DNA of 64,000 bases from positions 8,065 through 72,064 of the forward strand of contig JAFEEQ010000009.1 of the NCBI GenBank assembly GCA_018241025.1. The letters run 5' to 3'. The stretch is from Pseudomonadota bacterium (lineage in GTDB: Bacteria > Pseudomonadota > Alphaproteobacteria > Micropepsales > Micropepsaceae). Each line of letters starts with the position of its first letter. The stretch's first letter is position 1. The position numbers and the translations under genes were made by a program. Of the stretch, positions 9,083-64,000 are shown one piece after another. A model generated the notes under the pieces. It was not told the DNA's origin. It saw only the letters and a program-made list of their open reading frames with translations, and made no database searches.

Positions 9083-9694
9083 ATGAAATTCCTGACCAAG
9101 GCCGCGCTGGGTGCGCTGATGCTGGCCGGTGCGAGCGCCATGACGGCGGCACCGGCGGAAGCGCGCGTCACCGTCGGCTTCGAATTCGGCGGGCCGGGCT
9201 ATGCCGTGCCGGCCTACTGCGATCCCTACAGCCGTTACTACGATCCCTATCGTTGCGACGACTATGGCGACGACTACTACGACTACTATTACGGCCCCGT
9301 CTTCATCGACGGCATCTGGCTGAGCAATGGCTTCCGGACGCGCTGGTATCACGGGCACCGCGAATTCTATTACCACGGCGGCTGGCGCAGCGGTTCGGGC
9401 TGGCATGACAACGGCTTCCGTCGTGGCGGCTGGGGCCGCGCCGACTGGGATCGCCGCGGCGGCTGGGGCGGCGGTGACCGTCATCGCGACTGGGATCGCG
9501 GCGGTGACCATCGCGGCGGCGGATACGGCGGCGGCCACGGCGGCGGCAGCTACAGCGGTGGCGGACACGGCGGCGGCAGCTACGGCGGCAGCCATGGCGG
9601 CGGTAGCTGGAGCGGCGGCCACGGCGGCGGCCATGACGGTGGACATGGCGGTGGCGGCGACCACCACGGCGGCGGTCACGACCATCATCATTGA
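9083..9694 (+). CDS. Secreted Tyr/Asp-rich protein with Gly/His-rich tail
   Basis: Signal peptide ending APAEA; aromatic domain; GGHGGG low-complexity C-terminus. Confidence 0.75.
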   Translation: MKFLTKAALGALMLAGASAMTAAPAEARVTVGFEFGGPGYAVPAYCDPYSRYYDPYRCDDYGDDYYDYYYGPVFIDGIWLSNGFRTRWYHGHREFYYHGGWRSGSGWHDNGFRRGGWGRADWDRRGGWGGGDRHRDWDRGGDHRGGGYGGGHGGGSYSGGGHGGGSYGGSHGGGSWSGGHGGGHDGGHGGGGDHHGGGHDHHH

Positions 9695-9708
9695 GTTGAG
9701 TCAATAAG

Positions 9709-9756
9709 GCAGCGGGCGGTCTTCGTTTCTATGCGATGCGAAGATCGCCCGTTTGC
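9709..9756 (+). terminator. Long imperfect hairpin between the two Gly-rich genes
   Basis: GCAGCGGGCGGTCTTCG ... CGAAGATCGCCCGTTTGC inverted repeat. Confidence 0.5.
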
Positions 9757-9813
9757 ATGTCACATTGGCGCCGCGATCCGCGGTGAATGATCGTCAGGGA
9801 GCTGAGGAGACAG

Positions 9814-10926
9814 ATGATGAAACGATTGATGGCTACGACCGTTGCGGCCGCGGCATTGATGGGCGCGGCGCTGCTGGGATCGGCACCGGCGAAAGCCGAT
9901 ACGTTCGGCGTGCGCTGGGGTCTCGGATTTTCGTATGACAGCGGCGGCTATTGCGACAGCTTCGGATGCCCGGACGGGTTCTGGGAATATCCGATCTCGT
10001 ATTGCCCCGTGTACTACCGCGGCCAGTGGTATCGCGGACCGTTCTATTATCGCGAGCGCTATGGCCGGGTGCAGTACTGGATCCGCGGCGCATGGCGCTT
10101 CGACCAGTGGGATTCGCGGCGTCCGGAATGGGCCTGCGTGAACCGCTTCGGGCCCGCGCTCGATTTCGACTTCTACATCGGTCACGGCTTCCGTTGGCGC
10201 GACACCTGGCGCCACCGCTGGGAGCATGACTACGGCCATGGCGGTCACCGTCCCGGCCACGGCGGCGACGGGCGGCCGGGACATGGCGACCATGGCGATC
10301 ACGACGGCGGGTTCCCCGGATTTCCGGGCTTTCCCGGCATGCCTGGCGGACATAGCGATGGCGGACATGGCGGTGATGGTCACGGAGGACATGACGGTCA
10401 TGGCGGTCCGGGCTCCGGCGGAAGCTGGCCGGGCAGCGGTGGTCCAGGTGGCGGCACCGGTGGGCCCGGAAGCGGTGGCTCGGGCGGACCGGGCACGGGT
10501 GGACCCGGCGGCAGCCATAGCGGCGGGCCTGGTGGTTCCGGAAGCCGTGGCCCTGGCGGTAGCTCGGGCGGACCGGGCACGGGTGGACCCGGCGGCAGCC
10601 ATAGCGGCGGGCCTGGTGGTTCCGGAAGCGGTGGCCCTGGCGGTGGCTCGGGCGGACCGGGCACAGGTGGACCCGGCGGCGGCCATAGCGGCGGACCTGG
10701 TGGCTCCGGTAGCGGTAGCCCTGGCGGCGGATCGGGTGGACCGGGCACAGGTGGACCCGGCGGCGGCCATAGCGGTGGACATGGCGGTTCCGGAAGCGGT
10801 GGCCCCGGTGGCGGCTCGGGTGGTTCCGGCGGCAGCGGTTCGGCCGGCCATGGCCATGGTGGGTCCGACAGCGGTTCGTCCGGCGGTTCCGACGGCGACC
10901 ACGGACATCACGACCGTTCGCGCTGA
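9814..10926 (+). CDS. Secreted Cys/aromatic-domain protein with GGPG/His repeats
   Basis: RBS GAGGAGA; signal peptide ending APAKA; four 28-aa repeats. Confidence 0.75.
   Translation: MMKRLMATTVAAAALMGAALLGSAPAKADTFGVRWGLGFSYDSGGYCDSFGCPDGFWEYPISYCPVYYRGQWYRGPFYYRERYGRVQYWIRGAWRFDQWDSRRPEWACVNRFGPALDFDFYIGHGFRWRDTWRHRWEHDYGHGGHRPGHGGDGRPGHGDHGDHDGGFPGFPGFPGMPGGHSDGGHGGDGHGGHDGHGGPGSGGSWPGSGGPGGGTGGPGSGGSGGPGTGGPGGSHSGGPGGSGSRGPGGSSGGPGTGGPGGSHSGGPGGSGSGGPGGGSGGPGTGGPGGGHSGGPGGSGSGSPGGGSGGPGTGGPGGGHSGGHGGSGSGGPGGGSGGSGGSGSAGHGHGGSDSGSSGGSDGDHGHHDRSR
10483..10818 (+). repeat. Four in-frame 84-bp tandem repeats (GGPGTGGPGGSHSGGPGGSGSGGPGGGS)
   Basis: Units start at 10483, 10567, 10651 and 10735. 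Confidence 0.9.
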
Positions 10927-24025: not shown

Positions 24026-24056
24026 ACGGGGCCGCGGCTAGAGAGTGCAGGACTGT

Positions 24057-53895: not shown

Positions 53896-54678
53896 ATGAA
53901 TAGCCGCACCGCCGCCGCGCAGCTGCTGGAAGACGGATGGTGCGTCGTACCGGGTGTCCTCGACGCAGGCGCGACCGCCGATGCGCTTCAGCGCCTCCAC
54001 GCCGCCGCTGAAGAGTATCGCCGCCGCGGCCACGACACGCATATGCCGGTGCTCGATCCCAACGCCGCGAATGTCCGTGTTTTCGATCTCCTCGATCTCG
54101 ATCCGGTCTTCCGCGAGCTGATCCGCCATCCCGCCGCGCTGGCGCTGGTTCGTGCGCTTCTCGGCCCCGATGCGATGATCTCGAACTTCACCGCGAATAT
54201 CGCGCGGCCCGGTGCGCGCTCGATGAGCCTGCACTCCGACCAGGCGCTGGTCGCGCCCGAGCCATGGCTCGCGCCCTGGTCAGTCAACATCATCTGGTGC
54301 CTGAGCGACGTCCATCGCGACAATGGCGCCACGCTCTTCATTCCGGGCAGTCACAAGGTCACGCGCCGCGCGGAGCTTGGTGCCGGCCCCATCGCGCGTC
54401 TCGTGCCCTTCGAGGCGAAGGCCGGTTCGATCGTCGCGATGGATGGCCGCGTCTGGCATACTTCCGGCGCCAACGTCACGGCGAACGAAGAGCGCGCGCT
54501 GCTCTTCGGCTATTACTCGCGAGGCTTCCTGCGCCCGCAGGTCAACTGGAACGTGGTTCTGTCCCCGGAGGTGCAGAAGAGCCTCGATCCCGAGCTGCGC
54601 TGGCTGCTCGGACTCGGCGCCGCGGCGAATTTCGCTCAAGCCGCAGAGCTTCTTGCCGCCGACATCGGGCGCACGTAG
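53896..54678 (+). CDS. Phytanoyl-CoA dioxygenase (PhyH) family protein
   Basis: LHSDQ, NGATLFIPGSH, WHTSGAN. Confidence 0.9.
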   Translation: MNSRTAAAQLLEDGWCVVPGVLDAGATADALQRLHAAAEEYRRRGHDTHMPVLDPNAANVRVFDLLDLDPVFRELIRHPAALALVRALLGPDAMISNFTANIARPGARSMSLHSDQALVAPEPWLAPWSVNIIWCLSDVHRDNGATLFIPGSHKVTRRAELGAGPIARLVPFEAKAGSIVAMDGRVWHTSGANVTANEERALLFGYYSRGFLRPQVNWNVVLSPEVQKSLDPELRWLLGLGAAANFAQAAELLAADIGRT

Positions 54679-54711: not shown

Positions 54712-55821
54712 GTGAAAACCCGCGCCGCCGTCGCCTTCGAAGCCAAGAAGCCGCTCGAGATCGTCGAGCTCGATCTCGAAGGGCCGAAGCCCGGCGAGGT
54801 ACTGGTCGAGCTGAAAGCGACCGGCATCTGCCACACCGATCAGTACACGCTCTCCGGTCTCGACAGCGAAGGCCTGTTTCCCTCGATCCTCGGCCATGAA
54901 GGCGCGGGCATCGTGCGCGAGGTCGGCGCTGGTGTGACCAGCGTGAAGCCCGGCGATCACGTCATCCCGCTCTACACGCCCGAATGCCGCCAGTGTAAGT
55001 CGTGCCTCTCCGGCAAGACCAATCTGTGCACCGCAATCCGCGCCACCCAGGGCAAGGGCGTGATGCCCGACGGCACCTCGCGCTTCTCGTACAAGGGCAA
55101 GCCGATCTACCACTACATGGGCTGCTCGACCTTCTCGAACTTCACCGTGCTGCCCGAGATCGCGGTCGCGAAAATCCGCGACGACGCGCCCTTCGACAAG
55201 GCCTGTTACTGTGGCTGCGGCGTCACCACCGGCGTCGGCGCCGTGATCAACACCGCGAAGGTGAAAGCCGGCTCCAACGCCATCGTCTTCGGCCTCGGCG
55301 GCATTGGCCTTAACGTCATCCAGGGCCTGAAGCTCGTCGGCGCGCAGATGATCGTCGGCGTCGACATCAACCCGGACCGCGAAGCCTGGGGCAAGCAGTT
55401 CGGCATGACGCATTTCGTCAATCCGAAGAAAGTCGACGGCGATATCGTCGCCCATCTCGTCGCGCTCACCGATGGCGGCGCCGATTACACCTTCGATTGC
55501 ACCGGCAACGTCACCGTGATGCGCCAGGCGCTCGAAGCCTGCCACCGCGGCTGGGGCGAGAGCACCATCATCGGCGTCGCGCCCGCAGGAACCGAGATCG
55601 CGACCCGCCCCTTCCAGCTCGTCACCGGCCGGGTGTGGCGCGGCACGGCCTTCGGCGGCGCCAAGGGCCGCACCGACACGCCCAAGATCGTCGACTGGTA
55701 CATGAAGGGCATGATCCAGATCGACCCGATGATCACCCACGTCCTGCCGCTCGAAAAGATCAACGACGCCTTCACGCTGATGGAAGAGGGCAAGAGCATC
55801 CGCAGCGTTGTGGTATACTGA
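54712..55821 (+). CDS. frmA: S-(hydroxymethyl)glutathione dehydrogenase / class III alcohol dehydrogenase
   Basis: [41 protein letters not shown]. Confidence 0.95.
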
Positions 55822-55853: not shown

Positions 55854-55868
55854 GATGGGATGGAGCCC

Positions 55869-56144
55869 ATGAGCGATACCGTCGGCCCCGGCGATCTGGT
55901 TCTCTGCGTCAACGCCGCGCCCAACCATGCCACCGGCCGCCCCGTGCCGCTGGTCGCCGGCGAGACCTATCGCGTCGTCGATATCATGGAATTCGGCTGC
56001 CCCTGCGGACGCTCCGATCACCTGCTGGATGTCGGCGTCGACTTCGCCTGGTGCCAGACCCGCTTCCGCCTCCTCCCCAAACCCAAAGCCGAGAAAAAGC
56101 CGCGCAAGGTCTCCGCCCCGAAGGAGAAGGAAACGGCGCGGTAG
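55869..56144 (+). CDS. Small hypothetical protein with Cys/His cluster and Lys-rich tail
   Basis: RBS GGAG; PGDLVLCV, GCPCGRSDH, WC. Confidence 0.6.
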   Translation: MSDTVGPGDLVLCVNAAPNHATGRPVPLVAGETYRVVDIMEFGCPCGRSDHLLDVGVDFAWCQTRFRLLPKPKAEKKPRKVSAPKEKETAR

Positions 56145-56259: not shown

Positions 56260-57903
56260 ATGGCGAGCACGATGCTAACCGAGAGCTACTTCAGCGCCAC
56301 CGCCGACAAGCCGCTCGTCTACGAGACTATCGGCGCCTGCTTCGACCGTATCGCGGACACATTCGGCGAGCGCGACGGCCTCATCGTCCGCCATCAGAAC
56401 ATCCGCTGGACCTACGCCCAATACCGCGCCGCAGTCGATCGCTTCGCCGCCGGTCTTCTCGCGCTCGGAATCAAAAAAGGCGACCGCGTTGGCGTCTGGG
56501 CGCCCAACTGCGCCGAATGGTCGGTCACGCAGTTCGCCACGGCCAAGCTCGGCGCAATCCTCGTCTGCATCAACCCGGCCTATCGCATCTACGAGCTCGA
56601 ATTCGCGCTCAACAAATCCGGCTGCACCGCGCTTGTCACCGCGCAGCAATACCTGACTTCGAACTACGCCGGCATGCTCGCAGAGCTGCGCGATGCCGGA
56701 AAGCTCCCGCAGCTCAAGCACATCATCGCCACCGGCGAGACCCCGCCGCCCGGCATGCTGCGCTTCGCCGACATCGCCGCCGATCCCGCCCCGCTCGCCG
56801 CCATCGCCAAGACGCTCTCGCCCGACGACCCGATCAACATCCAGTTCACCTCCGGCACCACCGGCCAGCCGAAGGGCGCGACGCTCAGCCATTTCAACAT
56901 CCTCAACAACGGCCGCATCGTCGGCGAAGGCATGCGCTTCAGCGAGCATGACCGGCTCTGCGTGCCCGTTCCGCTCTATCACTGCTTCGGCATGGTGATG
57001 AGCAATCTCGCCTGCGTCAGCCACGGCGCCGCCGCGGTCTTCCCGAATGACGGCTTCGATCCGGTGAAAACCCTCGAAGCCGTCGCCGCCGAAAAATGCA
57101 CCGCGCTGCACGGCGTGCCGACGATGTTCATCGCCGAGCTCGAACACCCGCGGTTCAGGGAATTCGATCTCTCCTCGCTCCGCACCGGCATCATGGCGGG
57201 CGCGCCGTGTCCTGTCGAAGTCATGAAGCGTGTGCAGGGCGAGATGCACATGAAGGAAGTGCTCATCGCCTACGGTCAGACCGAGACCTCGCCGGTCAAC
57301 CACCAGACGACCAAGGACGATCCGCTCGACAAGCAGGTCGAAACCGTCGGGCGTCCCGGCCCGCATCTGGAGATCAAGCTGATCGACGAGCATGGCGCGG
57401 TCGTGCCCATCGGCACGCCGGGCGAGATCTGCTGCCGCGGCTATTCCGTCATGCAGGGTTATTGGGACGAGCCGGGCCGTACCGCCGAGACCATCGACCG
57501 CGCCGGCTGGCTCCACTCCGGCGATCTCGGCGTGATGGATGGTGAGGGCTACACCGCCATCGTCGGGCGCTTGAAAGACATGATCATCCGCGGCGGCGAG
57601 AACGTCTATCCGCGCGAGGTCGAGGAATTCCTCTTCACCCACGACGCGGTCGAGCAGGTCCAGGTCTTCGGCGTCCCCGACCGGAAGTACGGCGAGCAGG
57701 TCTGCGCCTGGATCAAGCTCCGCCACGGCCACAGCCTCGACGAAGACGCCGTGCGCGCCTACTGCAAGGACCGCATCGCGCATTTCAAAGTGCCGCGCTA
57801 CGTCCGCTTTGTCGACGACATCCCGATGACCGTCACCGGCAAGCCGCAGAAGTTCAAGATGCGGGAGGCGATGGTGACAGAGTTGGGCGCTGTGAGCGGT
57901 TAG
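56260..57903 (+). CDS. AMP-binding acyl-CoA synthetase
   Basis: [43 protein letters not shown]. Confidence 0.93.
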
Positions 57904-58348: not shown

Positions 58349-58368
58349 TTGTCATCCACGGATGACAA
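58349..58368. promoter_or_regulatory. Perfect palindrome over the TetR start codon (putative operator)
   Basis: TTGTCATCC-AC-GGATGACAA; TTGACA at 58322; no SD sequence. Confidence 0.6.
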
Positions 58369-58952
58369 ACACTGCGACCCTCGCCCCCGAGCGGTCCGCG
58401 CCTCGCAAGCGGGACGCGGAGGCGACTAAGCGCGCCATCCTCGACGCCGCCAAAATCCACTTCGCCCGCTCCGGCTATGACGGCGCCTATCTGCGCGACA
58501 TCGCCGCCGATGCCGGCGCCGACGCCGCGCTGATCAATCGCTATTTCGGCGGCAAGGATGGGCTGTTCCAGGCCGCGCTGAAGGACTCCATCGCCCCCGA
58601 TGCGATCTCGCACTGGAGCCGGGCCAGCTTCGGCCTCGACGTCGCCACCATGATGGCCGGCCACGCCCATCAGCAGGTCGAGCGCACCCACGCCTTCGAA
58701 TTCCTGCTCCAGGCCGCGACCAATCCCGCCACCGCGAAGCTGCTGAACGTCGCCGTGCAGGAGCGCTTCCTCGGTCCGATCCGCGCTTGGATCGGCGGCA
58801 AGGATGCCGAGCCGCGTGCCCGCGTGCTGGCTTCGGTCTTCATCGGCCTTCTGGTCGAACGTCTCATCCGCGACGAGGCGCTCGAAGGCGCCGAACGCGA
58901 CATCTTCATCAAACGCACCGCGACCGTGTTGCAGTCGCTGGTGGAAAACTAA
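58362..58952 (+). CDS. TetR/AcrR family regulator
   Basis: ILDAAKIHFARSGY, IAADAGADAALINRYFGGKDGLF. Confidence 0.93.
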   Translation: MTNTATLAPERSAPRKRDAEATKRAILDAAKIHFARSGYDGAYLRDIAADAGADAALINRYFGGKDGLFQAALKDSIAPDAISHWSRASFGLDVATMMAGHAHQQVERTHAFEFLLQAATNPATAKLLNVAVQERFLGPIRAWIGGKDAEPRARVLASVFIGLLVERLIRDEALEGAERDIFIKRTATVLQSLVEN

Positions 58953-58975
58953 AGCAACGCCTTGGAGGAGTGGAC

Positions 58976-60106
58976 ATGACGGACGGGAATATCACCAAAG
59001 ACATCGTCTACGAAGCGGTTGCGCCGGACGATTTCGAATCGATGATCGAGCTGGACCGCTATGAGAAGCGCTCCACCGCCTTCGACAAGATCATCTCCGC
59101 CACCCACGACCACTTCTGGGATCCGCTCGACAAGAAGTACATCGACTTCGACGAGCCCTTCGACATCGAGCATGTCCAGATGATGCCGGACGACCAGATC
59201 TTCCAGCTCCAGATCCCCTACGTCCGCGATCATCTCGAGAAGACCGGCCAGAAGGTCCGCTTCGCCAACGAGATGCAGCTCTGGTCGTTCTCGTCCATCC
59301 TGCATGGCGAGCAGGGCGCGCTGAACCTCTCGGCCTCGCTCTGCCACGTGCTGAAGGATCAGGGCGCGCAGGAATACGCCGCCAACCAGACCCGTGAGGA
59401 AGCCCGCCACGTCACCGCCTTCGCCAAGTACATCAAGTCGCGCTGGGGCCGTCCGCGGCCCTGCGGCACGGTGCTGAAGGCCCTGCTCGTCGACATCATC
59501 TCGGCGCCCGAGGTCTACAAGAAGATCATCGGCATGCAGATGCTGGTCGAGGGCCTCGCCATGGGTGCCTTCGCCACCGGCTACAAATACAACCAGGACC
59601 CGCTCGCCAAAAAGCTGTTCCAGCTCGTGATGACCGACGAGGCGTTCCATCACAAATTCGGAAAGATCTGGGCCGACCGCACCATCCCGCGCATGTCGGA
59701 AGACGAGCGCAACGTGGTCGAGGACTGGGCGGCGCATTGCTTCCAGTCGCTGGTGATGAACCTCGGCAGCCCGCAGCAGCAGGCGGAGATGTATGCCTCC
59801 TTCGGCCTCGACCCGGAGAAGGTGGTCGCCGGCCTGATGGAGATACGCTCGGAAGCCCGCACCCGCGAGCGCCTGCGCGAGTCGACCAACATTTTCCGCG
59901 TGCTGATCAAGACGCTGCTGAAGGCCGGCCTGATCTCCGATCGCACCAAGGCGTTCTACGGCAACTACGTCGACATGGACGAACTGAAGAGCGAGGGCGA
60001 CCGCATGGTCGGCGACGACATCGCCGAGGAAGGCATCGCCTACCTCCAGACGATCAACTTCAAGGATCGCAGCAACGCAGCGGCGATCAGGATCGCAGCG
60101 GAGTAA
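58976..60106 (+). CDS. Ferritin-like diiron protein (AurF/N-oxygenase-like fold)
   Basis: HGEQGA, EEARH, VEG, DEAFH carboxylate/His ligand pattern; RBS GGAGGAG. Confidence 0.85.
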   Translation: MTDGNITKDIVYEAVAPDDFESMIELDRYEKRSTAFDKIISATHDHFWDPLDKKYIDFDEPFDIEHVQMMPDDQIFQLQIPYVRDHLEKTGQKVRFANEMQLWSFSSILHGEQGALNLSASLCHVLKDQGAQEYAANQTREEARHVTAFAKYIKSRWGRPRPCGTVLKALLVDIISAPEVYKKIIGMQMLVEGLAMGAFATGYKYNQDPLAKKLFQLVMTDEAFHHKFGKIWADRTIPRMSEDERNVVEDWAAHCFQSLVMNLGSPQQQAEMYASFGLDPEKVVAGLMEIRSEARTRERLRESTNIFRVLIKTLLKAGLISDRTKAFYGNYVDMDELKSEGDRMVGDDIAEEGIAYLQTINFKDRSNAAAIRIAAE

Positions 60107-60107
60107 C

Positions 60108-60228
60108 CATCCTTCGGGGCTCCGCTGCGCGGAGCGCCTCAGGATGACGAATGCAACACCATGACTCTCAGGATGACGGCATCCGCACCGTCATCCTGAG
60201 GTGCGAGCAAAGCGAGCCCCGAAGGATG
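60108..60228. repeat. REP-like element (GTCATCCTGAGG type) ending in the ferredoxin ATG
   Basis: CATCCTTCGGGGCT...CCTCAGGATGACG / CGTCATCCTGAGG...AGCCCCGAAGGATG. Confidence 0.85.
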
Positions 60229-60546
60229 CCCAAAGTCACCTACATCGAACACAACGGCAAAGAGCACACTGTCGACGTCCCCGAAGGGTGGTCGGTCATG
60301 GAAGGCGCCGTGAAGAACCTTATCCCCGGCATCGACGCCGATTGTGGCGGTGCCTGCGCCTGCGCCACCTGCCACGTCTTCGTCGATGCGAAGTTCGAGG
60401 CGAAGATCCCTCCCAAATCCGACATGGAGGAAACCATGCTCGACTTCGCGCCGGAGATTCAGCCGAACAGCCGTCTCAGTTGCCAGATCAAGGTGACGCC
60501 GGAGCTCGATGGCCTCGTCGTCCGCATGCCCCAAAGCCAACACTGA
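60226..60546 (+). CDS. 2Fe-2S ferredoxin (putidaredoxin/adrenodoxin type)
   Basis: [18 protein letters not shown]. Confidence 0.95.
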
Positions 60547-60601
60547 AAATGCGTCAGCACTAGGGAACGCGCAACAGAACAGACAATACGGGAGGAAGGC
60601 C

Positions 60602-61885
60602 ATGAACGTCGCAGTGGGAAGTCTGGAACAGGCGCGCAACGATGCCTGGTCGCTGCCGTTGGAGAAGATCGATCCGGCCAATGCCGATCGCTTCCAGAAC
60701 GACACCATCTGGCCCTACTTCGAGCGTCTGCGCCGCGAGGACCCCGTTCACTACACCGCCGACAGCGCCTACGGTCCCTACTGGTCGGTGACCAGGTGGA
60801 ACGACATCATGGCGGTCGACACCAACCACGAGGTGTTCTCCTCCGCCGACGGCATCGTGCTGTCGACGCTGGAATCGATCGCCGAGAACGAGAAGATCCG
60901 TGGTCCGCGCGACCGCAATGCCGGCGGCTTCATCTCGATGGACCCGCCGCATCATGGTCCGAAGCGCAAGACGGTCACGCCCGTCGTCGCGCCCGACAAT
61001 CTCGCCCGCATGGCGCCGCAGGTGCGCGAGCGTGCCGGCATCATCCTCGACTCCCTGCCCATCGGCCAGGAGTTCGACTGGGTCGACAAAGTCTCGAAGG
61101 AGCTGACGGCGATGACGCTCGCCACGCTCTTCGATTTCCCCTTCGAGGACCGGCGCAAACTGACCTACTGGTCCGACATGTTCACCAACGCGCCCGGCCA
61201 TGGCCCGGCGAAGAGCTGGCTGCACAAGAAGGAAGCGGCCGACGAGTGCTTCGGCGCCTTCGCCCATCTCTGGAACCAGCGGGTGAATGCCGAGCCGAGC
61301 TTTGACATGATCTCGATGCTGGCGCACAGCCCGGCGACGCGGAACATGGATCCGCGCGAGTATCAGGGCCATGTCGTGCTTCTGATCATCGGCGGCAACG
61401 ACACCACCCGCAACACGATCAGCGGCAGCCTCTATGCGCTCAACAAATATCCCGAGCAATATGCCAAGCTGCGCGCCAATCCCGGCCTGATCACCTCTAT
61501 GGTGTCGGAGACGATCCGCTGGCAGACGCCGCTCGCCCATATGCGCCGCACCGCGCTGCGCGACTTCGAGCTCGGCGGCAAGCAGATCAAGGAAGGCGAC
61601 AAGGTCGTCATGTGGTACGTCTCGGGCAACCGCGACGAAAGCATGATCGCCGATCCCAACGCCTACCTCATCGATCGCGAGCGCCCGCGCCAGCACCTGT
61701 CCTTCGGATTCGGCATCCACCGCTGCGTCGGCAACCGCGTCGCCGAGCTTCAGCTCCAGATCATCTGGGAAGAGATCGTGAAGCGCTTCCCCGACATCCG
61801 CGTCGTCGGCGAGCCGACCCGCACCCATTCGTCTTTCGTCAAAGGCTATGAAACGCTGCCGGTCGTGATTCCGGCGCGCAACTGA
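60602..61885 (+). CDS. Cytochrome P450, CYP153-like (divergent copy)
   Basis: GGNDTTRN, ETIRWQTP, HLSFGFGIHRCVG. Confidence 0.93.
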   Translation: MNVAVGSLEQARNDAWSLPLEKIDPANADRFQNDTIWPYFERLRREDPVHYTADSAYGPYWSVTRWNDIMAVDTNHEVFSSADGIVLSTLESIAENEKIRGPRDRNAGGFISMDPPHHGPKRKTVTPVVAPDNLARMAPQVRERAGIILDSLPIGQEFDWVDKVSKELTAMTLATLFDFPFEDRRKLTYWSDMFTNAPGHGPAKSWLHKKEAADECFGAFAHLWNQRVNAEPSFDMISMLAHSPATRNMDPREYQGHVVLLIIGGNDTTRNTISGSLYALNKYPEQYAKLRANPGLITSMVSETIRWQTPLAHMRRTALRDFELGGKQIKEGDKVVMWYVSGNRDESMIADPNAYLIDRERPRQHLSFGFGIHRCVGNRVAELQLQIIWEEIVKRFPDIRVVGEPTRTHSSFVKGYETLPVVIPARN

Positions 61886-61901
61886 GGTCAAGGAGTCTCC
61901 G

Positions 61902-63173
61902 ATGAACGTCGCGCTCAAGAAAGATGACATCAACGCCGCGCGCGACGCGGCCTATGCGGTTCCGCTCGACAAGCTCGACGTCGCCCAGCCGCTGCTCTTC
62001 CAGCAGAACGCGATGTGGCCGTATTTCGAGCGCCTGCGCCGCGAAGACCCGGTGCACTTCTGCGCCGAGAGCGAGTTCGGCCCCTATTGGTCGATCACCA
62101 AATACAACGACATCATGGCGGTCGACACGAACCACAATGTGTTCTCGTCCGACTTCCTTGCCGGCGGTATCACCATCGGCGGCGGCCAGGCCAATGTCGA
62201 TCCGCTGCCGATGTTCATCGCGATGGATCCGCCGAAGCACGACATCCAGCGCAAGGTCGTCACTCCCGTCGTCAGCCCCGCCAATCTGCAATATCTCGCG
62301 CCGCTGATCCGCGAGCGTGCCGGCAAGATCCTCGACAGCCTGCCGATCGGCGAGCCCTTCGACTGGGTCGACAAGGTCTCGATCGAACTCACTGCCATGA
62401 CGCTCGCCACGCTGTTCGACCTGCCGCAGGAGGAGCGCCGCCAACTCGCGCGCTGGTCCGACATCGTCACCGCGGCGCCCGGACACGGCATCATCGACAC
62501 GCTCGAAGAGAAGATGATGGAGTTCCAGCGCTTCCACGCCCGCTTCACCGAGCTGTGGAACGACCGCGTCAACGCTACCGAAGTGAAGGGCGATCTCATC
62601 TCGATGCTCGCCCACAATCCGGCGACCCGGAACATGGAGCCGCGCGAGTATTTCGGCAACATCGTGCTCCTCACCGTCGGCGGCAACGACACCACGCGCA
62701 ACACGATCTCCGGCTCCATCCTGGCGCTCAACCAGAACCCGGACCAGTACGACAAGCTGCGCGCCGATCCGTCGCTGATCACCTCGATGGTGTCGGAGAC
62801 GATCCGCTGGCAGACCCCGCTCGCCCATATGCGCCGCACCGCCAAGGAAGACATCGAGTTCCAGGGCAAGACGATCAAGAAGGGCGACAAGGTCGTGATG
62901 TGGTACGTCTCGGGCAACCGCGACGACGAGGTGATCGAACGTCCCAACGACTACATCATCGACCGCGAAAATCCGCGCCGCCACATCTCCTTCGGCTTCG
63001 GCATCCATCGTTGCGTCGGCAACCGCCTGGCCGAGCTCCAGCTCCAGATCATCTGGGAAGAGATCCTGAAGCGCTTCCCGCACATCGAAGTTGTCGAAGA
63101 GCCGCGCCGCAGCTACTCGACCTTCGTGAAGGGCTACGAACGCATGATGGTGGTCATCCCGAAGCGGGTCTAA
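61902..63173 (+). CDS. Cytochrome P450, CYP153-like
   Basis: MFIAMDPP, GGNDTTRN, HISFGFGIHRCVGNRLAELQL. Confidence 0.95.
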   Translation: MNVALKKDDINAARDAAYAVPLDKLDVAQPLLFQQNAMWPYFERLRREDPVHFCAESEFGPYWSITKYNDIMAVDTNHNVFSSDFLAGGITIGGGQANVDPLPMFIAMDPPKHDIQRKVVTPVVSPANLQYLAPLIRERAGKILDSLPIGEPFDWVDKVSIELTAMTLATLFDLPQEERRQLARWSDIVTAAPGHGIIDTLEEKMMEFQRFHARFTELWNDRVNATEVKGDLISMLAHNPATRNMEPREYFGNIVLLTVGGNDTTRNTISGSILALNQNPDQYDKLRADPSLITSMVSETIRWQTPLAHMRRTAKEDIEFQGKTIKKGDKVVMWYVSGNRDDEVIERPNDYIIDRENPRRHISFGFGIHRCVGNRLAELQLQIIWEEILKRFPHIEVVEEPRRSYSTFVKGYERMMVVIPKRV

Positions 63174-63187
63174 GTTCCGCTCCTGTT

Positions 63188-63243
63188 CCTCCCCCGTCGT
63201 AACGGGGGAGGGGGACCATCGCGCAGCGATGGTGGAAGGGGCG
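63188..63243. repeat. REP-like element, family C variant
   Basis: CCTCCCCCGT/ACGGGGGAGG 10-bp stem plus ACCATCGC/GCGATGGT stem. Confidence 0.75.
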
Positions 63244-63274
63244 ACCGCCCCGCACTGACCATCGGGCGTGTGCC

Positions 63275-64000
63275 ATGAAACCCATCGACCTCACCTCCGT
63301 CGAACACCTCCTCGAAGGCCATATCGACATCCGCCGCCGCCCCGGCTCGATCCAGCCGCTGCGCTATCCCGCCGCCGAGCACGAGTACTACGACGTCTTC
63401 ACCCGCTGGGTCGCCTCTGCGCCCGCCGGGGTGCGCCTGCGCCTGCGCACCGATTCCGACATCCTCGAACTGAAAGTCCGCCAGCGCGTCGCTGCGCTCG
63501 ACGGCACGGCGCGCAACGCCGTCTGGAAAGTCTTCGTCGACGGCGACTCGTACGGCTTCGGCGAGGTTACCGGCGGCGCCCAGCTTCTCGCCGACGGATC
63601 GCTCAAGGGCGACGAGCACGCCACCGTCCGTATCGAGCTTCCGCACAGAGACAACGAAGTAGAGATCTGGCTACCCCAGACCGCGACCGTTTCCATCGAT
63701 TCCGTCGCCATCGCCGACGGCGCGCATTGGGCGCCCTGGCCGGACCGGCGCAAGCGCGTCGTCTTCCACGGCTCTTCGATCACCCATTGCATGGAAGCCG
63801 ACAGCGCTGCGGGCGCCTGGTCCGCCGTTGCTGCGCGCCTCGCCGATGTGAACCCGCTCAATCTCGGCTGGGCCGGTTCGTGCATCCTCTCCGGCCTCGC
63901 TGCCCGCATCATCCGCGATCAACCGGCCGACGCCATCGTCCTCAAGCTCGGCATCAACGTGCACGGCGAGGGGTTGCTCAAGGAACGCACCTTCCTCGAC
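63275..64000 (+). CDS. SGNH/GDSL hydrolase with N-terminal beta domain (truncated by the window end)
   Basis: In-frame read MKPIDLTSVEHLLEGH...VVFHGSSITHC...NLGWAG...KLGINV; absent from the ORF track because it has no stop in the window. Confidence 0.85.
   Translation, partial: MKPIDLTSVEHLLEGHIDIRRRPGSIQPLRYPAAEHEYYDVFTRWVASAPAGVRLRLRTDSDILELKVRQRVAALDGTARNAVWKVFVDGDSYGFGEVTGGAQLLADGSLKGDEHATVRIELPHRDNEVEIWLPQTATVSIDSVAIADGAHWAPWPDRRKRVVFHGSSITHCMEADSAAGAWSAVAARLADVNPLNLGWAGSCILSGLAARIIRDQPADAIVLKLGINVHGEGLLKERTFLD

Follow-up and report, generated by a model that had tools for sequence, protein, structure and literature searches.

In bacteria, the aerobic hydroxylation of alkanes is ascribed mainly to CYP153 and AlkB. 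The described class I CYP153A operons, among them that of CYP153A7 from Sphingopyxis macrogoltabida HXN-200 and those of Acinetobacter, Alcanivorax and Marinobacter, carry genes for a ferredoxin reductase (FdR) and a ferredoxin (Fdx). A second enzyme of relevance is the aldehyde-deformylating oxygenase (ADO), which is soluble and ferredoxin-dependent and binds long fatty chains; chains of C16-C18 are bound by ADO and by the R2-like ligand-binding oxidases (R2lox). Here, we describe a cluster in which CYP153A genes are bracketed by two genes for ferritin-like diiron-carboxylate proteins, termed DI1 and DI2. It lies at the end of a 64,000-nucleotide stretch of DNA (C34:8065-72064, below called the window) from a 4.1-Mb genome in 34 contigs, whose nearest relatives carry the label Rhizomicrobium (Micropepsaceae, Alphaproteobacteria). 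All genes were found on the plus strand, in the order TetR-family regulator, DI1, [2Fe-2S] ferredoxin, two CYP153A P450s and an SsfX3-like SGNH protein, followed past the window end by DI2 and an aldo-keto reductase. Like the described operons, the cluster combines two CYP153A P450s with a putidaredoxin-type ferredoxin and has alcohol dehydrogenase and acyl-CoA synthetase genes nearby. Unlike them, it contains no reductase gene, the genome having a single FdR for 12 P450 genes, and its regulator is of the TetR type. In the literature searched, no paper was found describing two diiron genes bracketing a CYP153 operon.

Our preferred reading, to which we assign a rough probability of 50%, is that of a TetR-controlled cluster in which ferredoxin-fed, ADO-like diiron oxygenases act alongside CYP153A on long aliphatic chains. 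For DI1 the initial annotation of the window had proposed a complete diiron ligand pattern, HGE/EEARH/VEG/DEAFH. This pattern is real: in an alignment of 25 diverse homologues E112, E142, H145, E192, E222 and H225 were found invariant or nearly so, and both an N-terminal HFWDP...PFD segment and the C-terminal extension were conserved as well, the former strongly. The AlphaFold2 model of DI1 (predicted local distance difference test 90.4, predicted template modelling score 0.90) has a predicted four-helix-bundle fold with 2 His and 4 carboxylates, and all its Foldseek matches in the PDB were ferritin-like diiron proteins, only distant ones (all E > 5e-3; best TM-score for AurF, 0.50/0.58). A profile of the family gave a clearer order. 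ADO was the best match among solved structures (E 1e-6, four ligand helices covered), with R2lox next (E 2e-5). In the ADO alignment GE, EExRH, vEG and DExxH pair with EGE, MEQRH, IEC and DEYLH of ADO, with all six ligands in register and the DExxHxxFG stretch included. DI1 is supported as an intact 2 His / 4 carboxylate ferritin-like enzyme, closest to the lipid-handling, ferredoxin-dependent ADO. A site of this type is typical of diiron hydroxylases (PMC12101540).

Using family models, DI1 was matched only weakly, by Pfam AurF (27.4 bits, cut-off 29.6) and Ald_deCOase (18.4 bits, cut-off 28); NCBIfam gave nothing meaningful, with TIGR04059, the ADO model, at 20.1 bits versus a cut-off of 222.65. 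Further differences to ADO (PF11266 / TIGR04059) are the length of 376 amino acids versus about 230 in the single-domain ADO, the lack of an acyl-ACP reductase partner and the catabolic alphaproteobacterial setting. The R2lox share the ferritin-like dimetal architecture, form the second tier of both profile and Foldseek matches and bind a fatty-acid-like ligand, while the similarity is remote (E 2e-5, TM-score about 0.4-0.55) and the metal of DI1 is predicted only. One of them, GkR2loxI, was reported as an alkane monooxygenase (PMC10867098) so that alkane hydroxylation has been claimed before for a soluble protein of the ferritin-like kind. A functional analogy can also be drawn to soluble acyl-ACP desaturases (PF03405) and to the CoA-ester epoxidases PaaA and BoxB, which are diiron enzymes fed by ferredoxin or reductase and act on thioester-activated chains, in agreement with the acyl-CoA synthetase, enoyl-CoA hydratase and acyl-CoA dehydrogenase neighbours described below. 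The analogy is one of function only, as no sequence-family match to these groups was found at E ≤ 0.01 and PF03405 was not among the Pfam matches of DI1 at that threshold.

The family is large. At least 5,894 proteins matched it at E ≤ 1e-5 among 8,000 candidates scored, and an exhaustive search yielded 1,212 clusters of 50% identity at E ≤ 1e-3 and 130 at E ≤ 1e-30. In the source databases the members are named 'ferritin-like domain-containing protein' or 'hypothetical protein', or loosely 'Long-chain fatty aldehyde decarbonylase' or 'Ferritin'. Neither a dedicated Pfam or NCBIfam model nor a solved structure was found for the family. Literature searches on CYP153 with ferritin-like proteins, on Caulobacter/Phenylobacterium diiron proteins and on ferritin-like diiron proteins with acyl-CoA brought up no paper on it; the Caulobacter 'ferritin-like' literature concerns Bfr and Dps. 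Using about 50% identity as the lower limit of the core family (DI), 49 of 401 alphaproteobacterial genomes were found positive, compared to 5 of 381 in a phylum-wide sample, all five being Alphaproteobacteria. Two to four copies per genome are usual, the present genome holding four plus a cousin, DI5, and paralogues are 55-68% identical across alphaproteobacterial families. DI1 and DI2, 75% identical to each other, fall into ancient sister paralogue clades of a maximum-likelihood tree, each with Caulobacteraceae orthologues.

Taken together, the nearness to ADO and R2lox, the domain fusions and the beta-oxidation-type neighbours point to long aliphatic chains as the substrate, as far as this can be read from sequence. 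Among 38 loci from 20 genomes, enoyl-CoA hydratase genes were found next to the diiron gene in 7 genomes, acyl-CoA synthetase in 6, acyl-CoA dehydrogenase in 4, MMPL/RND transporters in 4 and HlyD transporters in 4, the remainder being synteny; the enrichment of beta-oxidation genes is modest and was judged without a formal background. In the present genome the other two DI paralogues adjoin an alpha/beta-hydrolase gene and a pair of short-chain dehydrogenase/reductase and enoyl-CoA hydratase genes, respectively. Two metagenomic fusions were observed. In P0139 (1034 amino acids) a fatty-acyl-AMP ligase (FAAL; AMP-binding plus DIP2-like) is joined to the diiron domain, and in P0128 (425 amino acids) a TubC_N docking domain. 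Three further metagenomic members, P0131, P0152 and P0153, possess an unannotated N-terminal extension of about 200 amino acids; the gene for P0152 is followed in L085 by a sulfotransferase gene and a type I secretion set (C39-ABC, OEP, HlyD-like).

The tie to CYP153 was visible at the level of whole genomes. Of the 401 alphaproteobacterial genomes 49 carried DI, 46 carried CYP153 and 34 carried both, corresponding to an odds ratio of 64 (Fisher p 1e-27) in statistics that ignore phylogeny, which supports a link between the diiron family and CYP153 at genome level. For CYP153 and its own reductase class, FdR, the odds ratio was 12.5. As a predictor of CYP153 presence, DI surpasses the reductase class of this P450. 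CYP153 was also carried by 18 of 23 DI-positive bacterial families, and genomes containing both ranged from 1.4 to 5.8 Mb, including some of 1.4-1.7 Mb.

At the level of gene order the picture is mixed. The initial annotation had recognised a co-oriented cluster, and all six plus-strand open reading frames were indeed found where it had placed them; as an observation it was right but incomplete, DI2 lying outside the window with its start 184 nucleotides past the end of the SGNH gene, and its interpretation as a lipid-oxidation pathway of two oxygenase chemistries sharing one ferredoxin is supported in part. The features of the locus are given below in window positions or, past the window end, in window-equivalent positions.

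53896-54678, plus strand: PhyH-family (phytanoyl-CoA dioxygenase-like) iron/2-oxoglutarate (Fe/2OG) oxygenase, upstream context (Pfam PhyH 102.7 bits)
54712-55821, plus strand: Zn-dependent alcohol dehydrogenase, upstream context (ADH_N 79 bits, ADH_zinc_N 88 bits)
56260-57903, plus strand: acyl-CoA synthetase (AMP-binding), upstream context (AMP-binding 336 bits)
58349-58368, no strand: operator-like palindrome over the TetR start codon, TTGTCATCC-AC-GGATGACAA
58362-58952, plus strand: TetR-family regulator (TetR_N 44.6 bits, TetR_C_16 48.7 bits)
58976-60106, plus strand: DI1, ferritin-like diiron-carboxylate protein, 376 amino acids (conserved ligands, AlphaFold2 model, profile match)
60108-60228, no strand: nested palindrome resembling repetitive extragenic palindromic (REP) elements in the DI1-Fdx gap (RNA fold -78.5 kcal/mol)
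60226-60546, plus strand: putidaredoxin/adrenodoxin-type [2Fe-2S] ferredoxin, 106 amino acids (Fer2 42.6 bits)
60605-61885, plus strand: CYP153A P450 'a', variable cluster member (551 bits to CYP153A7, 3RWL)
61902-63173, plus strand: CYP153A P450 'b', conserved cluster member (588 bits to CYP153A7, 3RWL)
63275-64000, plus strand: SsfX3-like two-domain SGNH/GDSL protein, cut by the window end (full gene to window-equivalent 64339)
64340-64523 (window-equivalent; L002:6404-6587): REP-like hairpin in the SGNH-DI2 gap (-97.4 kcal/mol)
64524-65651 (window-equivalent), plus strand: DI2, 375 amino acids
65766-66677 (window-equivalent), plus strand: aldo-keto reductase, downstream of DI2

Intergenic gaps are short, with 23 nucleotides between TetR and DI1 and 16 between the two P450 genes. 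A survey of gene order in 80 related loci showed that neighbourhood conservation of diiron and CYP153 genes, on which the initial annotation had staked its proposal, holds for one lineage: the core TetR-DI1-Fdx-CYP153b-DI2 was kept in nine of the 80 loci, all from Rhizomicrobium-like metagenome-assembled genomes (MAGs), and it is confined to this narrow subclade. In these nine loci identities were 85-94% for DI1 and 84-95% for DI2, and an orthologue of P450 'b' was found in every one of them, compared to only three with P450 'a' (L006, L016, L017) and three with the SGNH gene. Upstream, the alcohol dehydrogenase was present in five of the nine (L003, L004, L006, L007, L016; 89-95% identity) and the acyl-CoA synthetase in four (L003, L004, L006, L007; 79-88%); the aldo-keto reductase and PhyH-family genes were not conserved with the cluster. 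In two looser cases, L013 and L019, a CYP153 gene was found within 3-8 kb of a DI gene, that of L019 belonging to an Fdx-CYP153 pair 3-4 kb off.

Both P450s belong to CYP153, given their full-length, high-scoring similarity to characterised CYP153A enzymes. The matches extend over about 410 residues and reach 575 bits ('a') and 594 bits ('b') against 6HQG, and the two proteins are 64-66% identical. Both translations carry FGFGIHRCVGNR and GGNDTTRNTISG, with the heme-thiolate motif FxxGxHxCxG and the I-helix stretch GGNDTTRN, the latter being typical of CYP153. The full SGNH product of 354 amino acids was matched by Lipase_GDSL_2 (52.7 bits, cut-off 32.9) and Lipase_GDSL_3 (49.6 bits). It shows the GSS, GxN and DxxH blocks of a two-domain SGNH/GDSL protein of the SsfX3-like kind, and its nearest solved structure is the acyltransferase SsfX3 (3SKV; 95 bits, residues 14-341). 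The role formerly given to it, release of the substrate from esters, is weakened, as the gene is a variable accessory of the cluster and its product is as similar to SsfX3, an acyltransferase that uses acyl-CoA, as to an esterase.

The absence of a ferredoxin reductase from the cluster was confirmed. A single gene of the putidaredoxin-reductase type exists in the genome, on another contig (C3:90211-91419), and an FNR-type NAD_binding_1 domain was not detected. This lone FdR gene is followed by a ferredoxin gene whose product is 83% identical to the cluster ferredoxin. The latter was assigned to the putidaredoxin/adrenodoxin type by its Fer2 domain (cut-off 21 bits), the Cx5Cx2C...C pattern with LSCQ in the translation and a length of about 106 amino acids; fdx_isc scored 60.7 bits, under its cut-off. 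The P450 genes of the genome number 12, five of them CYP153-like and seven of other kinds, and there are four ferredoxins of the cluster type. As a single FdR thus faces 12 P450 genes and four putidaredoxin-type ferredoxins, one reductase feeding many oxygenases via duplicated ferredoxins is the rule in this genome and not a peculiarity of the cluster.

Evidence on the electron donor of the diiron proteins came from DI5, a member of a cousin subfamily with 33% identity to DI1 and a Pfam AurF score of 58 bits. In the same genome (C28:368418-370790, minus strand) a Flavodoxin_2/FMN-reductase-like gene (196 amino acids), a ferredoxin gene and DI5 form a unit, with DI5 directly downstream of its own putidaredoxin-type ferredoxin, which is 60% identical to the cluster ferredoxin. 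The Fdx-DI5 adjacency is kept in two genomes of another family, G010 (L133) and G195 (L131), and we regard it as the strongest new datum on the probable electron donor of the diiron family. In addition, some 20 Caulobacteraceae loci have an FdR-Fdx pair roughly 4 kb upstream of their DI gene, and in the genome G043 DI occurs together with an Fdx-FdR pair but without any P450. The DI5 unit adjoins hemN and ccoNOP. In G195 a membrane FA_desaturase/AlkB-superfamily gene (L131:15607-16506) and a TetR regulator gene were observed just past Fdx-DI5, with CYP153 6 kb off. A link to CYP153 via the DI5 subfamily, suggested by distances of 6-13 kb in G195, G326 and G004, was rejected: unrelated genes lie between (DSBA, MatE, CoA-transferase, outer membrane protein, PAS) and the arrangement is not operonic.

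The regulator has a TetR_N helix-turn-helix domain and a TetR C-terminal ligand domain. Orthologues of 65-81% identity were found at the cluster head in six related loci, and a homologue of 51% identity heads a TetR-DI-DI unit in L020. The palindrome over its start codon is a perfect 9+9 repeat, occurs as a single copy in 84 kb (the window plus 20 kb downstream; 0 chance matches expected) and recurs without any change in L006 and L016, where it again overlaps the start of TetR at this position. We infer from this pattern that TetR binds it as a putative operator. No plus-strand intrinsic terminator was predicted across the whole cluster. The palindrome between DI1 and the ferredoxin gene is far more stable than its shuffled versions (z = -7.5) and its last three bases are the ATG of the ferredoxin gene; lacking a T-tract, it does not qualify as a canonical terminator. 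Related REP copies (CATCCTTCGACAGGCTCAGGATGAGG type) were observed at window positions 24045, 38936 and 56155.

According to the preferred reading, the cluster would oxidise long chains, be it alkanes, fatty alcohols, aldehydes or acids, or their thioesters. NAD(P)H electrons would pass from the lone FdR encoded on C3 to the cluster ferredoxin, seen as a copy of the ferredoxin encoded beside FdR, and this ferredoxin would supply both the P450s and the diiron enzymes. The latter would activate O2 and hydroxylate, desaturate or deformylate the fatty chain, a step which may feed into, or draw from, the route of CYP153, alcohol dehydrogenase and acyl-CoA synthetase. A lipid effector would bind TetR, upon which TetR would leave the operator-like palindrome at its own start codon.

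A wider formulation can be given for the family, one which we put forward tentatively and consider rather doubtful in its full extent. It would see in DI an unrecognised group of soluble, ferredoxin-dependent, ADO-like oxygenases acting on fatty aldehydes or long-chain hydrocarbons, which together with CYP153 form a conserved alphaproteobacterial hydrocarbon-oxidation toolkit, reaching into streamlined marine genomes of 1.4-1.7 Mb. Its members might be alkane hydroxylases of a second type, or deformylases that shorten aldehydes by one carbon in catabolism. The results bring to light a large and conserved diiron family that has gone unstudied and whose distribution among genomes is strongly linked to alkane hydroxylases; it is therefore a promising candidate for an enzyme still missing from hydrocarbon or lipid oxidation. 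Should hydrocarbons, or products of their oxidation, prove to be substrates of DI, a further enzyme class would enter the models of how alkanes and lipids are turned over in soil and ocean, and biocatalysis would gain a soluble diiron enzyme with a ready-made redox partner. The cluster supplies a concrete set for reconstitution, namely DI1 or DI2, the cluster ferredoxin and the reductase from contig C3.

We are aware that several observations weigh against a joint action of diiron and CYP153 enzymes. Besides the modest enrichment of beta-oxidation genes, most DI genes elsewhere look monocistronic and have heterogeneous neighbours. Adjacency to CYP153 is limited to one subclade, and the cluster is absent from two genomes of the same genus. 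About 65 loci of Caulobacter, Phenylobacterium and other Caulobacteraceae contain orthologues of 71-83% identity, often in tandem arrays, with no CYP153 nearby. The co-occurrence could reflect a shared 'lipid degrader' lifestyle. Four DI-bearing genomes are without any P450, and 11 of the 49 DI genomes have no FdR match at E ≤ 1e-60. Finally, the very stable hairpins at DI1-Fdx and SGNH-DI2 could uncouple expression. Because DI occurs in four genomes that lack P450s, its function is P450-independent: the family has a function of its own which needs no P450, and the assembly of its genes around a CYP153 cassette is particular to one lineage.

The strongest alternative builds on these points, and we consider it less probable but a serious contender. 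It holds that no pathway is shared. A mobile Fdx-CYP153(-CYP153-SGNH) cassette would have landed in an older, self-sufficient TetR/diiron unit serving a separate function, such as the modification of membrane lipids or fatty acyl groups, so that shared ferredoxin and regulation would be incidental. The ancient split of DI1 and DI2, each with Caulobacteraceae orthologues that have no adjacent CYP153, fits this explanation, as do the common tandem DI arrays, the TetR-DI-DI unit of L020 without a P450, and the variable presence of P450 'a' and the SGNH gene among relatives. The same is true for the two REP-like hairpins, which stand exactly at both junctions of the diiron genes with the Fdx-CYP153-SGNH block, for the P450-less DI genomes and for the two same-genus genomes without the cluster. 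Against it stands the odds ratio for DI and CYP153, which exceeds the one for CYP153 and its reductase class. The Fdx-CYP153 pair near DI in a second lineage (L019) and the retention of the arrangement across at least nine diverged genomes, with alcohol dehydrogenase and acyl-CoA synthetase genes conserved upstream, also speak against it. The special version of a DI1-DI2 tandem split by insertion was rejected: A-type (DI1) and B-type (DI2) genes were not adjacent in the Caulobacteraceae loci examined, where only other paralogue pairs were found. Because the two types are not mutually adjacent there, the insertion idea is kept as a rival only.

With the preferred reading of oxygenases acting alongside CYP153A in mind, ADO-type deformylation in a catabolic route has to be considered as a specific alternative, and it appears improbable. 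A fatty aldehyde derived from CYP153 and alcohol dehydrogenase would be converted to the Cn-1 alkane and formate, providing a bypass that resembles alpha-oxidation and by which branched chains could be handled. The family profile matches ADO best, with all six ligands aligned, and ADO is known to depend on ferredoxin; the cluster holds alcohol dehydrogenase, aldo-keto reductase and PhyH-family genes but no aldehyde dehydrogenase, the nearest one being about 28 kb off. Nevertheless, the model scores lie far under their cut-offs, DI1 exceeds ADO by about 150 amino acids and has conserved extensions at both termini, the reaction would be energetically costly in catabolism, and the aldo-keto reductase and PhyH genes do not travel with the cluster.

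An iron-storage, ferroxidase or peroxide-detoxifying ferritin-like protein, which would protect or supply the P450s, is very improbable: membership in the ferritin-like superfamily, the position beside heme enzymes and a marine orthologue adjoining heme O synthase and cytochrome oxidase genes would agree with it, but 376 amino acids with large conserved extensions contrast with ferritins or Dps of 160-180 amino acids, the ligand sphere is of the oxygenase type, the family is present in P450-less genomes and the oxidase adjacency is not kept in the related genome G117.

Least probable of all is an arylamine N-oxygenase of the AurF/CmlI type (PF11583) or a halogenase of the CylC type from secondary metabolism, for which the weak Pfam AurF match, the best Foldseek TM-score and the fusions of some members to FAAL or TubC docking domains, reminiscent of natural-product pathways, are outweighed by the AurF score under the gathering cut-off, by the missing histidine and motifs detailed below and by the absence of biosynthetic genes nearby. 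AurF/CmlI and CylC/NocO share the ferritin-like four-helix-bundle diiron fold, and FAAL- or ACP-activated fatty chains as substrates of CylC-type enzymes recall the FAAL fusions of the DI family. AurF, however, has 3 His and 4 carboxylates and CylC a predicted 3 His and 3 Glu, compared to 2 His and 4 carboxylates in DI1. The third histidine of AurF is located four residues before the glutamate of the last ExxH, and CylC is marked by QExxH and HxxDExxH (PMC12101540). In DI1 the corresponding position, -4 in L-V-M-T-D-E222-A-F-H225, is occupied by Val218, which makes the N-oxygenation once suggested for this protein unlikely and, together with the score of 27.4 bits, led us to reject membership in AurF/CmlI. 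CylC was compared by its published motifs and rejected on them, DI1 having R-E-E142-A-R-H and V-M-T-D-E222-A-F-H. Both signatures are thus excluded because of the valine four residues before E222 and a first motif of the EExxH form.

Some further arrangements of DI genes were observed. In L044, a Phenylobacterium MAG, three DI paralogues stand in a row with plsY (glycerol-3-phosphate acyltransferase) between them, followed by a lipocalin gene (Blc-like), and an FdR-Fdx pair is located 4 kb upstream of this row. In the marine metagenome contigs L088-L090 (OCS116-like) an orthologue of 66% identity directly follows a UbiA-family (heme O synthase-like) gene, which is divergent from a COX2-COX1-COX3-COX4_pro oxidase operon; the orthologue stands two genes before SCO1/SenC and near gyrB-recF-dnaN-dnaA. 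A heme-related role was considered for this context, and for DI5 near hemN and ccoNOP, and rejected, as G117 keeps only the gyrB-recF side and the family occurs without any P450; the arrangement was treated as synteny.

Two minor features of the window lie outside the cluster. An open reading frame of 94 amino acids without a Pfam match (55860-56144) was found between the alcohol dehydrogenase gene and the REP copy upstream of the acyl-CoA synthetase gene. At 9360-10890 long Gly/His-rich coding repeats were observed, with five 84-nucleotide-spaced copies of a 168-nucleotide unit and fifteen GGCGGC-rich copies of 44 nucleotides, which suggests that this region encodes a highly repetitive Gly-His-rich protein.

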